Assembly: GCF_023055435.1 (NCBI RefSeq)
Contig: NW_025964358.1
Location: 1,550,001 to 1,614,000, forward strand
From: Haliotis rufescens
Taxonomy: Eukaryota
Direction: 5' to 3'
DNA: 64,000 nucleotides
The translations under genes were made by a program, and so were the position numbers. Below, piece by piece: positions 380 through 41,603 of this stretch (the first letter of the stretch is position 1; every line of letters begins with the position of its first letter). The notes below the pieces were generated by a model. The model saw only the letters and a list, made by a program, of their open reading frames with translations. It was not told where the DNA came from and made no database searches.

Positions 380-1540
380 GTGGAGGTAGGGCTACAATAT
401 AGCCTCACTCCATTGATTAGGGAAGGCAGAGATACAATATACCATTCCTCCACTCTTTTTTTTTGTGTGTGTGGGGGTGGGGGGGTGTGTGGGGTGGGGG
501 GGGGGGGGGGGGGTGAGGGTTGATATACCCTTACTCCATTAATTAGGGAAAGAAGGGCTACAATATACCGTTATTTCGTTCATTATGGGAGGCAGGGCTG
601 CAAGGTACCCTTATTTCATTAATTAGGGGAAGCAGGGCTACAATATACCCTTATTTCATTCATTGGGGGAGGCAGGGCTGCAATATATACCCTTATTTCA
701 TTAATAAGGGAGGCAGGGCTGCAAGATACCCTTATTTCATACATCAGGGAGGCAGGGCTGCACGATACCCTTATTTCATACATCAGGGAGGCAGGGCTGC
801 AAGATACCCTTATTTCATACATCAGGGGAAGCAGGGCTATAATATACCCTTATTTCATTAAAAAGGGCAAGCAGGGGTACAACATACCCTTATTTCATTA
901 ATTAGGGGAGGCAGGGGTACAACATACCCTTATTTCATTAATCAGGGGAGGCAGGGCTGCAAGATACCCTTATTTAATTAATTTCGGGAAGCAGGGCTAC
1001 AATATACCCTTATTTCATTAATCAGGGGAGGCAGGGCTGCAAGATACCCTTATTTCAAAAATCAGGGGAGGCAGGGCTGCAAGATACCCTTATTTCATAC
1101 ATCCAAGTAATTTTTCTGAAAACCTCAAATTACTGATACCCTTCTTTCATTAATTAAGGGGGGCATGGCTTCAAGATACCCTTATTTCATTAATCAGGGG
1201 TTGGTTGGTTGGTTGGTTGTTTAACGCCTCACTCCGCAATATCCCAGCTATATGACGGCGGTCTGTAAATAATCGAGACTGGACCAGACAATCCAGTGAT
1301 TGACATCATGAGCATCGATCCACGCAACTGGGATCGATGACATGCATCAACCAAGTCAGCGAGTCTGACCACCCGATCCCGTTAGTCGCCATTTACGACA
1401 AGTATAGTCACCTTTTACGGCAAGCATGGGTTGCTGAAGACCTATTTTACCCCAGAATCTTCACGGGTCCATTCATCAGGGGAGGAAGGGCTACAAGATC
1501 CCCTCCCTCCATTTATTAGCGGAGGCAGAGCTACACTACA
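380..1540. repeat. 40-bp minisatellite (ATACCCTTATTTCATTAATCAGGGGAGGCAGGGCTGCAAG), intronic, interrupted by SINE A
   Basis: Direct tandem repetition with degenerate edges. Confidence 0.9.
1201..1469 (-). mobile_element. SINE-like family A, full-length copy inserted in the 40-bp minisatellite
   Basis: Matches the other A copies. On the - strand it begins GACCCGTGAAG and ends in (AACC)n. TSD CATTAATCAGGGG (1188-1200) / CATTCATCAGGGG (1470-1482). Confidence 0.85.
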
Positions 1541-2518: not shown

Positions 2519-2788
2519 CGGTTGTTGTCGGTTTTGTTGTTTAACGCCGTACTCAGCAATATTCCAGCTATATGCAGCGGTCTGTAAATAATCTTGTCTT
2601 CACCAGACAATCCAGTGATTAATATCATGAGCATCAATCCACGCAATTGGGATCGATGACATGCATCAACCAAGTCAGCGAGCTTGACAACCAGATTCCG
2701 TAAGTCGCCTCTTACGACAAGCATAGTCGCCTTTTACATATGGGTTGCTGAAGACCTATTGTACCCCGGACCTTTTCTTCACGGGTCT
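2519..2788 (-). mobile_element. Family A copy
   Basis: Near full-length match to 1201-1469, with the same 5' terminus (CACGGGTC on +). Confidence 0.85.
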
Positions 2789-22913: not shown

Positions 22914-23065
22914 GTGAATGAGTGAGTTTTGTTTTACGCCGCTTTTAACAATATTCCAGTCATATAACTGCGGGGGGCCCCAGACATTGGCTTCACACAT
23001 TGTACCCATGTTGGGAATCGAACCCGTGACGAGCGTGCGCTTTAACCACGAGGCTACCCTACCGC
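22914..23065 (-). mobile_element. SINE family B, older copy
   Basis: Colinear with the B consensus; small deletion in the tRNA part. Confidence 0.8.
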
Positions 23066-23534: not shown

Positions 23535-23876
23535 GTTTCTTTCTTTCTTTCTTGTTTAACGCCGCACTCATCAATATCCCCACTATATGATGACGGTCTG
23601 AAAATGATCGTGTCTGGACCAGACAATCCATTGATTGACATCATGAGCTTCGAGGTACACAATTGGGATACGATGACATGCATCAACCAAGTCAGCGAGC
23701 CTGACCACCTGATCCCGTTAGTCGCCTCTTTCGACAGGCATAGTCGCCATTTACGGCAAGCATAGTCGCCTTTTACGGCAAGCATAGTCGCCTTTTACGG
23801 CAAGCATAGTCGCCTTTTACGGCAAGCATAGTCGCCTTTTACGGCAAGCATGGGTTGCTGAAGATCTTCACGGGTT
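23535..23876 (-). mobile_element. Family A copy with an expanded internal 22-bp module
   Basis: A consensus with five tandem GCATAGTCGCCTTTTACGGCAA-type units (23738-23847). Confidence 0.85.
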
Positions 23877-24499
23877 CATCTTTAAAAGTCCTGAATATAA
23901 TTATATATGGCAAGGGGGCGTGTGTGTGTTTGTGCGTGCGTGCGTGTGTTTTTGTGCGTGCGTGCGTGCGTGCGTGGGTACGTGCGTGCGTGCGTGCGTG
24001 CGTGTGTGTGTGTGTGTGTGTGGAGGTCGGGGGGTAGTGGGCAAGGATGTCAATATCCCAAATTTCCCGAATGTTTGACAAATCATTAGTAAAAGAGTAA
24101 TACCTTGTCTGTGGGACAAGTACTGTCAAACGGGTGGTCTTGCAATGACACCTGGGCATAGCAGGCCTAAAGAACGACACCTGGACGGGCTCGTCTCATG
24201 ATATCAACGCAATGTATTCAAATCTGCTCCTGTAATCAATGGAGAACTCTGTACAATACCAGGAGGATGAATTTCAACATGTGCCGTTAAAAAACCGGGT
24301 CCATGCAACCTTCTATATAATACATAGGTCATTAAGCATCTCAATTAGGGACATTAGGCGATGTCTTCCGAACAGATGGGCAGGTGTTGTGGTACAAATG
24401 AAATATACATCGAAATAGAACAGAAATTACAAATTAAAAGCAGAGGGATCTTCTTCCCCGTGTTTTGCATTAAATCGACTGTTCGGATTAATTCCCCAG

Positions 24500-26171: not shown

Positions 26172-26438
26172 TGCCCGTGAAGATTCAGGTTAGAATAGGT
26201 CTTCAGCAACCCATGCTGTCCGTAAAAGGTGATTATGCATGTCGTAAGAGGCGACTAACGGAATCGGGTGGTCAGGCTCGCTGACTTGGTTGATGCATGT
26301 CATCGTATCCCAATTGTGTGGATCGATGCTCATGATGTCAATCACTGAATTGTCTGGTCCAGACTTGATTATTTACAGACCGCCGTCATATAGCTGGAAT
26401 ATTGCTGAGTGTGGCATTAAACAAGAAACCAACTAACC
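26172..26438 (+). mobile_element. Family A copy
   Basis: CCCGTGAAGATTCAGGTTAGAATAGGTCTTCAGCAACCC ... GCTGAGTGTGGCATTAAACAAGAAACCAAC. A further fragment lies at ~26740-26810. Confidence 0.85.
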
Positions 26439-30862: not shown

Positions 30863-31097
30863 GTGTTTGTTTTTGGTTGCTTGTTTAACGCCGAAATCAA
30901 CAATATTCCGGCTATATGACGGCGGTCTGTAAATAATCGAGTCTCGAATCCAATGACTGACATCATGATCATCGATAAACACGATTGGGATACGATGACA
31001 TGCATCAACCACGTCACCGAGCCTGACCATCTTATCCCGTTAGTACATCAAGCATTGGTTCCGGAAGATCGATTCTAACCCGGATTTTCACGGGGTT
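30863..31097 (-). mobile_element. Family A copy (diverged)
   Basis: Colinear match from tail to the CACGGG 5' end, with deletions. Confidence 0.75.
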
Positions 31098-39174: not shown

Positions 39175-39680
39175 GGTTTGTTTGTTTGTTTGTTGAGCGC
39201 CACACTGGCCTGTTTGACGGCGGCCTGTAAATAATCGGGTCTGAAAAAGACAACCCAGTGATTGATAGTATGAGCAATGATGTACACCGTCGGGGTATTG
39301 TGACTGCTGTTGGTTGGTTGGTTTGTTTGTTGTTTTACGCCGCACTCAGCAATATTCCAGCTATATGACGGCGGTCTGTACATAATCGAGTCTGGACCAG
39401 ACAATCCAGTGATAAATATCATGAGCAACGATCCACGCATTTGGGATACGATGACATGCATCAACCAAGTCAGCGAGCCTGACCACCCGATCCCGTTAGT
39501 CGCCTCTTACGACAAGCATAGTCACCTTTTGCGGCAAGAATAGGTTGCTGAAGACCTATTCTATCCCGGATCTTCACGGGTCCGGTGACATGCAATCACG
39601 CAAGTCACCGAACCTGACCACCCGATTCATTAAATGCCCCTTAAATCGCATCTTACGACCAGCACGGGATATATTCTAGC
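39175..39680 (-). mobile_element. Young family A copy (39308-39582) flanked by, and probably nested in, an older A copy
   Basis: Clean copy at 39308-39582. A degenerate A 3' half (39175-39305) and 5' half (39585-39680) sit on either side in the expected order. Confidence 0.75.
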
Positions 39681-40772: not shown

Positions 40773-41277
40773 CCTATGAAATAACAGTATTCTGAGGGAG
40801 GGAGGAAGCACTGGCATTGCTTAAATCCTGAAGTGGCGTCCTGTCCTCACGCTGGGCAGTTGCATTTGAACAAGGGAGGTAATTGCTGTGGATGTTGAAT
40901 GGTATCTAATGTTATTGGTGTAAATGTTTAATACAGCTCACTTATAACATGCCATTGATGCCAGCCAGTGCTGTTGGGCAGGTTAGACAGATCCCCTATT
41001 GTCAGAATCAATCACGGCCTAATCTCTGGAGCCATTGGTTTGGGGATTTGATTAAGACACGTACAGTGTCAAATTTAAACAGGATTGTTATACCTTGTGC
41101 TAAGTGGCAGTGTGATTCGATTTAGATTTCTGGATTTCATCGCGTGTTTACTCAAGGCATAATAATCCATCACTGGGTGAGTTTTATGAACAAGCGAAGG
41201 AGGAACGGTTATTACACAATACATTTCTCTCCCCTAAAATTAAAACAACTAATTTTCCTGATGCTGATTGCATATGG

Positions 41278-41541
41278 TTGGTTCGTTTGTTGTTTATCGC
41301 CGCACTCAGCAATATTCCAGCTATATGACGGCGGTCTGTAAATAATCGAGTCTGGAACAGACAATCCAGTGATTGATATCATGAGCATCGATCCACGCAA
41401 TTGGGTTCGATGACATGCATCAACCGAGTCAGCGAGCCTGACCACCCGGTCCCGTTAGTCGCCTTTTACGACAAGCATAGTCACCTTCACGGCAAACATG
41501 GGTTGCTGAAGACCTATTCTACCCCGGAATCTTCACGGGTC
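41278..41541 (-). mobile_element. Family A full-length copy
   Basis: Full match; probable decayed TSD GATTGCATATGG / GGTTGCTTATGG. Confidence 0.85.
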
Positions 41542-41603
41542 GGTTGCTTATGGAATAGAGCTGGCTAGATTTGTTTCTATATGAAACAAGATTGGTTTTG
41601 TTT

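Follow-up and report, generated by a model that had tools for sequence, protein, structure and literature searches.

As shown in Table 1, a retroposon lies on the minus strand of the window, the whole 64,000-nucleotide stretch of Haliotis rufescens DNA analysed here. The 5′ start of this copy (41541-41278), GACCCGTGAAG, is found exactly at position 41541. It belongs to family A, a group of retroposons of about 250-265 bp with a sharp 5′ end, target site duplications (TSDs), the tail of a Nimb/I-type LINE and no tRNA head. A BLAST search with this copy as the query revealed about 17 family A copies or fragments in the window, in line with the 16 or so counted in a preliminary description, together with six short tail-only matches of other families. 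With a covariance model, complete or partial heads were recognised at 12 sites in the window; the search gave 17 matches at E ≤ 1, four of which are extra repeat units or neighbours and one of which is marginal. The exact 5′ ends that had been read at 1469, 39582 and 41541 are correct, the end placed at 2788 is really at 2787, and the copies starting at 23877, 26172 and 31097 have near-exact ends. Of five window copies, a script recovered the TSD of one (at 1469), and that of copy 41541 was recognised by eye (10 of 12). No A box and no exact B box were found in family A, in agreement with the earlier reading; two B-box look-alikes, each with one mismatch, occur in the body. The head belongs to no Rfam family, and the sole Rfam match in the window is the tRNA-like head of another family. 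The hairpin previously noted in the head is present, but its GUAAGA is GUAAAA in copy 41541, and it had not been mentioned that a hairpin unit of 21-22 nt is duplicated in most family A copies, this one included. Among 37 spacers from an evenly spaced genome sample, about 25 have two units and 8 have one.

Table 1. Family A copies in the window, the predicted parts of copy 41541-41278, and related viral and LINE loci.
Feature	Position	Strand	Remark
Family A LP-SINE copy, two-unit subfamily, 264 bp	41278-41541	-	
Left TSD, abuts G1	41542-41553	-	10/12 identical to 41277-41266; by eye, not recovered by the TSD script
G1-A2, two unpaired 5′ nucleotides	41540-41541	-	G 14/19, A 17/19
Predicted pseudoknot stem S1, 5′ strand, CCCG	41536-41539	-	compensatory versions in other families
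Predicted loop L1, single U	41535-41535	-	
Predicted stem S2, 5′ strand, 7 nt	41528-41534	-	stem 2 of the preliminary description
Predicted stem S1, 3′ strand, CGGG	41523-41526	-	
Predicted loop L3	41515-41522	-	3′ end is the conserved AGAAUA
Predicted stem S2, 3′ strand	41508-41514	-	
Predicted stem E, 5′ strand, CCC	41500-41502	-	weak in this family, 4-8 bp in most of the others
Degenerate duplicate of hairpin unit	41479-41499	-	subfamily-specific
Predicted hairpin D, stem GUCGU/GCGAC, loop AARAG	41458-41472	-	single-copy fold; sequence fixed by the search seed
Conserved UAA and predicted stem E, 3′ strand (GGG)	41451-41457	-	
Body	41327-41450	-	no match to the intact LINE of the same genome
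Tail homologous to the 3′ terminus of the intact Nimb/I-type LINE	41292-41326	-	27/35 columns
Terminal (AAAC/AACC)n repeats	41278-41291	-	
Right TSD	41266-41277	-	by eye
Full-length copy	1202-1469	-	13-bp TSD abutting G1
Full-length copy	2533-2787	-	
Full-length copy	39315-39582	-	directly behind a fragment (39691-39583) of a related head-bearing element
Near full-length copy	26172-26438	+	
Copy with pseudoknot loop deleted	23548-23877	-	six to seven hairpin units
Decayed copy	30873-31097	-	
Viral contig, toti-like RdRp	L089		
Viral contigs, tombus-type RdRp	L109, L562		
Viral contigs, tetravirus-type capsid	L063, L561		
Viral contig, S-domain capsid only	L049		no polymerase match
Intact two-ORF LINE	L535:4214-9231	-	
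Minimal 57-nt predicted HDV-like ribozyme, almost no P4	L556:7214-7270 (G000:C2, about 22.5656 Mb; also L537-L555)	-	exact LINE 5′ end

Does the 5′ boundary hold across the genome? The exact head pattern has at least 14,528 matches in the whole genome (G000), and a reversed control has none. To avoid choosing copies by their 5′ ends, 60 stretches of 10 kb were sampled at even steps. These 600 kb contain 75 tail-bearing copies, 30 of which reach element position 1-6; some of the 5′ breaks at positions 41-95 are probably alignment splits at the duplicated hairpin unit. About one tail-bearing copy is found per 8 kb, which by rough extrapolation gives some 160,000 per genome, on the order of 100,000. 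The claim of TSDs is borne out in this sample, in which 19 of 31 near-full copies have a scoring TSD, within 2 nt of G1 in 15 of the 19 and at 8-27 nt in the other four. Since the TSDs abut G1, family A has no longer parent, and the tRNA-headed one considered in the preliminary description is not indicated. Conservation in family A is at background level one base upstream of G1 (the top base at position -3 is found in 7 of 19). It starts exactly 2 nt before CCCG in family A and also in two unrelated metagenome SINE families (n = 19, 18 and 14), and all three families have a purine at +1.

The conserved head of about 90 nt is predicted to form an H-type pseudoknot and a hairpin with a fixed loop. 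In the predicted layout, S1 has 4-5 bp, L1 is one U, S2 has 7 bp and L3 ends in AGAAUA, whose invariance is partly due to selection because AGAAT belonged to the search pattern. On the 3′ side of the pseudoknot, stem E is followed by an internal loop with UAA and by stem D, which closes the AARAG loop. The fold was tested with one real copy per family: each strand was paired with its own partner and, for comparison, with those of the other families. The p values given here are descriptive and only rank models, because the families are related and the choice of registers was made with the data in view. In a few bulged copies the automatic register was wrong, and these copies were kept in; four close relatives of the 18 were dropped in a reduced run. 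For S2, the duplex energy is -7.2 kcal/mol with own partners versus -2.7 with foreign ones (n = 18), and the number of pairs is 6.5 versus 4.1 (n = 19). In the non-viral alignment, S2 covaries, with 5 of 7 pairs changing on both sides and a score above those of all slid registers; stem 2 as first proposed is thus well founded. S1 forms 3.7 of 4 pairs with own partners and 3.3 with foreign ones (p = 0.0003, n = 19; p = 0.0001-0.0014 by duplex energies), and clean swaps were seen among families (GCCG/CGGC, CGCC/GGCG and UGCC/GGCA). S1 and S2 cross, and each favours its own partners, as expected of a pseudoknot. Stem E is moderately supported by its own-partner preference (p = 0.003-0.006 by duplex energy, 0.07 by pair count). 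The four pairs of stem D never vary; covariation could not show there, because the hairpin sequence was the search seed. Tighter pattern variants gave no new true site and four extra loci without the full fold, and no variation of stem D was found among them. The folding energy of the single copy 41541 is no better than that of shuffles (z = +0.87), so the structure rests on the comparison between families rather than on energy or on variants among dead copies.

The preliminary description was right in placing a conserved pseudoknotted RNA at the 5′ end, but it had the partners swapped. In the fold proposed here, CCCG would pair with the CGGG of the loop, while the partner of ACCC would be the GGG that follows CUAA. 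The closing stem proposed before, between the 5′ CCCG and the CGGG after CUAA, pairs no better with own than with foreign partners (p = 0.61-0.83), and the proposed GGGU/ACCC pseudoknot is not favoured across 18-19 unrelated families (p = 0.08-0.83). The earlier model is understandable, because the 3′ CGGG of family A can pair both ways. Nor do the copy variants preserve pairing as had been suggested: the copy at 31097 gains one stem-2 pair and loses another.

Family A is an LP-SINE as judged from its head, because the scallop LP head has the same hairpin core with different but complementary stems. LP-SINEs, in which LP stands for LINE promoter, occur in gastropods and bivalves, are about 255 bp long and have a head of about 70 bp shared with the LINEs Nimb-17_LMi, I-3_DR and RTE-9_CPB (PMC4758252, in the part cited here). 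Family A resembles the LP-SINEs described there (Hdi_LP, Hmi_LP, Oco/Oed_LP and Sgl_LP) in its length, its lack of a tRNA head, its LINE-derived head, its variable TSDs and its terminal tandem repeats; identity with the Hdi_LP/Hmi_LP consensus is not implied. By eye, the scallop LP head (suppl. Fig. S2 of the same paper) has compensatory S1, S2 and E stems around the common hairpin core. The duplicated hairpin unit distinguishes family A from the published LP-SINEs as far as the cited part describes them, and that part contains no structure, no partner LINE and no viral copies. It proposes that the head is a presumed promoter and notes the L1Tc promoter/ribozyme as a parallel. As a class, the element is already known, tRNA-less LP-SINEs with such a head having been published in 2016 (PMC4758252, same part), and its head sequence is likewise in print. 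The literature searched, which lay outside subscription journals, Repbase and Dfam, gave no description of the fold, its corrected pairing, the viral copies, the partner-type LINE or a leader combining ribozyme and motif, and a literature search by the letters of the motif returned only unrelated primers. RIME, NARTc, Bov-A and RTE-N also combine a LINE-derived 5′ part and a LINE-derived tail without a Pol III head, and the cited part of the paper covering them describes no such fold (PMC5786205). Unlike these elements, family A retains just one part of the LINE leader, its second module, without the ribozyme, and carries about 120 bp of unrelated body.

An intact LINE was reached in this genome through a variant motif pattern. 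It has a 444-aa ORF1 and an ORF2 with endonuclease, reverse transcriptase (RT) and RNase H domains, which is the make-up of the I/Nimb LINE group. The family A tail, correctly described before as LINE-type, aligns with the 3′ terminus of this LINE in 27 of 35 columns with a score of 36, while the best of 2000 shuffles scored 26. The family A head also matches the head of this LINE by BLAST, and the LINE is a candidate mobiliser of family A. It has at least 150 close relatives in the genome, many of which keep open frames of about 1230 aa, and this LINE family is therefore probably active. A search of RNA records with the LINE as the query gave no match on record. The LINE was ruled out as the direct parent of family A, as no body match was found. 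Because the stems of family A differ from those of the LINE, the LINE appears to be a relative of the head donor and not the parent. Other repeats in the window (at 22973, 30538, 46352, 47372, 52892 and 54094) share the last 43 bp or so of the tail; given this common tail end, the same LINE probably serves the tRNA-headed families of the window as well.

In the non-LTR elements R2 and L1Tc/ingi, an HDV-like ribozyme at the 5′ end sets the exact start of the RNA within read-through transcripts. The motif is present in 18 of 20 LINE stretches, and all 18 begin about 56 nt upstream of it at a common 5′ end. The upstream LINE head is present in 19 of the 20 stretches, and 15 of the 19 fit an HDV-like ribozyme descriptor; the query that chose these copies did not contain the ribozyme sequence. 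The Rfam HDV match on the LINE head is weak (28.5 bits, under the gathering score). The motif begins immediately after the last stem of this predicted ribozyme. Like the HDV-like ribozymes of non-LTR elements, the family A head contains a CUAA stretch, but it lacks P1, P3/L3 and P1.1 and would be a second, separate module. A literature search joining Nimb and self-cleaving ribozyme returned no match.

Is the motif confined to retroposons? A 17-nt seed found five viral contigs, and in all of them the seed lies near a contig end with AGAAUA and the stems upstream. In all six small viral contigs holding the motif, which represent five lineages, it is on the sense strand behind the last ORF. RNA-virus hallmarks were recognised in four of the five lineages, L049 being the exception. 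Behind its S-domain capsid gene, L049 has a 1217-aa ORF (L049:255-3905, minus strand), for which no Pfam or PDB match was found. The AGAAUA loop begins 25, 29, 42, 92 and 119 nt past the stop codon in the five lineages; the first three distances place the start of the knot about 5-22 nt downstream of the stop codon in the lineages concerned. Between the 3′ end of the motif and the end of the contig there are 27-119 nt. The chance that all five would lie in the last 200 nt in the sense orientation is about 1.5e-8, or about 1e-6 without L049. The stems are unique to each viral copy. L049 has a second, tandem copy cut by the contig end, and tandem heads were also found in L185 and L508. A covariance model built from 16 non-viral copies scored seven full viral sites at 40-72 bits, compared with about 17 bits for seed-only sites and 26 for the best other site (86 loci, 1.08 Mb). 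Since the hairpin seed is shared by selection, this gap comes from the pseudoknot half. With looser viral patterns, four of about 240 loci among the matches listed pass the stem filter, one of them already known, and the remainder is noise. A 212-kb DNA virus record also has a full motif, without a SINE body or tail, in the space between two genes (L079:9953-10029) and near an NAD-dependent DNA ligase gene; this intergenic copy says nothing on the mechanism.

A metagenome scan gave at least 123 motif sites, mostly in several unrelated SINE-like families. In one metagenome family (L242, L209, L220 and L162), the motif stands directly before a tRNA-like A box, as reported for scallop MESC SINEs. 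An HDV-like fold was sought upstream of the motif at 130 metagenome and viral sites, and the one poor, AU-rich fit was not accepted. In 596 Gb of prokaryote genomes, only seven matches were found (L564-L570). One of them belongs to a LINE whose ORFs include a zinc knuckle and an endonuclease (ORF1 and endonuclease). Two others, at contig ends, have a SINE-like body also present at a metagenome locus, a fourth precedes a long trinucleotide repeat, and three (L564, L566 and L567) are on ORF-poor contigs. They were rejected as bacterial copies, being probable animal DNA in bins, a judgement that for L564, L566 and L567 relies only on low GC or lack of ORFs. All seven records are likely to be contamination or chimeric contig ends with animal retroposon DNA. 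The motif thus seems to be essentially absent from prokaryotes and confined to eukaryote-associated sequence.

How are SINEs without a Pol III head transcribed, and how do they obtain exact 5′ ends? The only proposal for such a head has been a presumed promoter. Since the same covarying fold is present in the 3′ UTRs of RNA viruses, the motif must act as RNA. I put a probability of roughly 0.45 on the reading that the family A head blocks 5′-to-3′ exoribonucleases, so that read-through transcripts are trimmed to an exact start without a ribozyme. A shade more tentative is the wider proposal that the motif represents a new class of exoribonuclease-resistant RNA (xrRNA) common to unrelated RNA viruses and animal retroposons, and that host Xrn1 carves SINEs from read-through transcripts. 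Family A copies would be transcribed passively, as part of host transcripts. Once such a transcript has been decapped or cleaved, Xrn1 or Xrn2 would digest the upstream host RNA and stall at the knot, and the stalled digestion would leave an RNA of about 260 nt with a fixed 5′ end. The LINE ORF2 protein would bind the family A tail and insert the RNA through target-primed reverse transcription. For the LINE, whose ribozyme leaves an uncapped RNA, the motif would serve as a shield; in viruses, the product would be a non-coding 3′ subgenomic RNA. The LINE family itself is not copied after trimming to the motif, because none of its 18 motif-bearing copies starts at the motif. With an exoribonuclease block, a single mechanism would explain where the SINE begins and where the motif lies in viruses. 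A stop of reverse transcriptase would be expected to fall 3′ of the knot, not 5′.

The support for an xrRNA-like element is positional and comparative. According to the parts of the sources cited here, xrRNAs are found where flaviviral 3′ UTRs begin (PMC11702639), are often tandem (PMC8374639) and work outside their native context (PMC12397905). The viral motif copies described above share the 3′ UTR position and the sense orientation in 6 of 6 small contigs, and the tandem arrangement in L049. The xrRNAs of classes 1-3 are compact pseudoknots of 55-90 nt found early in the 3′ UTRs of unrelated viruses, sometimes in tandem, with a fixed 5′ boundary at the base of the fold (same three sources, in part), and the predicted motif resembles them in these features. 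The xrRNAs differ from it in secondary structure and in sequence. Classes 1 and 2 have a three-way junction with two pseudoknots, which does not match the single H-type knot and hairpin predicted here. Class 3, a single P1/P2 stem-loop with its apical loop paired to the 3′ end, was also rejected, since pairing of the loop with a downstream strand is not favoured (p = 0.08-0.83) and the loop pairs with the 5′ end. A further difference is the occurrence of the motif in cellular retroposons, since xrRNAs had been characterised only in viruses as of a 2021 review, in the part cited (PMC8374639). An H-type knot alone would not be enough, because known frameshift pseudoknots do not stall Xrn1 (PMC10321173, in part). 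The fixed hairpin loop may be the extra brace that a plain pseudoknot lacks. However, the many fixed loop bases suit a binding site or a catalytic core at least as well.

A binding site is the basis of the next reading, which is clearly less probable than a block to exoribonucleases. The motif may bind the translation machinery or a host protein, serving as a cap-independent enhancer of translation, both in the 3′ UTRs of viruses and in the leader of the uncapped LINE RNA. In SINEs, it would sit on ribosomes and capture nascent ORF2 protein, much as Alu uses SRP9/14 to sit on ribosomes. The place of the motif in the LINE is consistent with this, as it follows an HDV-like ribozyme whose uncapped RNA must still be translated. 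Two motif hosts have tombus-type RdRps, and 3′ cap-independent enhancers lie in tombusvirid 3′ UTRs. The fixed loop sequences and the restriction to eukaryote-associated sequence would also fit. However, SINEs are non-coding, and binding by itself does not account for the common start of three SINE families, at precisely 2 nt upstream of the knot, so that a second mechanism would be needed for the 5′ end.

A catalytic core, that is, a self-cleaving ribozyme of an undescribed class cutting just 5′ of G1, is unlikely. The sharp 5′ ends, the TSDs abutting G1 and the many fixed unpaired bases would suit such a cut, and linear RNA viruses, toti- and tombus-like viruses among them, do have ribozymes in their UTRs (PMC13725137, in part). 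In contrast, none of 41 SINE heads fits the HDV fold, a nested double pseudoknot P1-P2-P3-P1.1-P4 with a pyrimidine-rich L3 and a catalytic C, as the preliminary description had said, compared with 15 of 19 LINE heads as a positive control and 0 of 88 random G starts. No Rfam ribozyme model, those of hammerhead, twister, twister-sister, pistol and hatchet included, reached the gathering score in the window, and none matched the motif at E ≤ 5 in five loci or at E ≤ 0.5 in nine. The absence of an Rfam match and of an HDV fit is the reason for the low weight given to this reading. A comparison with the layouts of the hammerhead, hairpin, twister, pistol and hatchet ribozymes, also by way of Rfam, gave no fit either. 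All 18 motif-bearing LINE copies retain 56 nt upstream, which a cut at the edge of the motif would remove, and through such a cut a viral genome would lose its last 100-190 nt. The ribozyme release suggested earlier is thus weakened, as the LINE starts at a separate HDV-like ribozyme and viruses carry the motif uncut.

Equally improbable as the main explanation is an internal DNA promoter with its start at G1, any RNA fold serving a second purpose as in Pr77/L1TcRz: it has been proposed for LP-SINEs from position but is only presumed in the cited part of the source paper (PMC4758252), and the fixed start two bases before the motif with a purine at +1 in three families would agree with it, but it cannot explain the RNA-virus copies or the compensatory stems, and the LINE has the motif 56 nt in from its start, preceded by a ribozyme indicative of read-through transcription. 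Promoter activity would be a second function at most.

If the head does block Xrn1, it would be a cellular xrRNA, a kind uncharacterised according to the cited part of the 2021 review (PMC8374639), and a compact RNA-stabilising part. It would also represent a third way to make the 5′ end of a SINE, needing neither promoter nor ribozyme. If it instead recruits ribosomes or cleaves, it would still be an undescribed class of RNA moving among viruses, LINE clades and SINEs. The predicted HDV-like ribozyme and the motif of the LINE may together serve as a natural two-module leader for studying how uncapped retrotransposon RNA survives and is translated.

The head also forms tandem arrays. Six to seven 22-nt hairpin units are repeated at 23877-23548 of the window, the pseudoknot half is found in arrays of 44/87 bp, and a satellite of about 640 bp carries the motif (G000:C1:9113275-9114095; G000:C57:2176620-2191343). 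In three small-RNA runs from one related species, 40 reads fall on the SINE, one of them near the head, and no sense pile-up was seen at either LINE boundary. In one of the three runs, an abundant antisense small RNA of about 30 nt lies over the LINE pseudoknot (L556:7178-7207; 85 reads with one start), and it looks like a piRNA.
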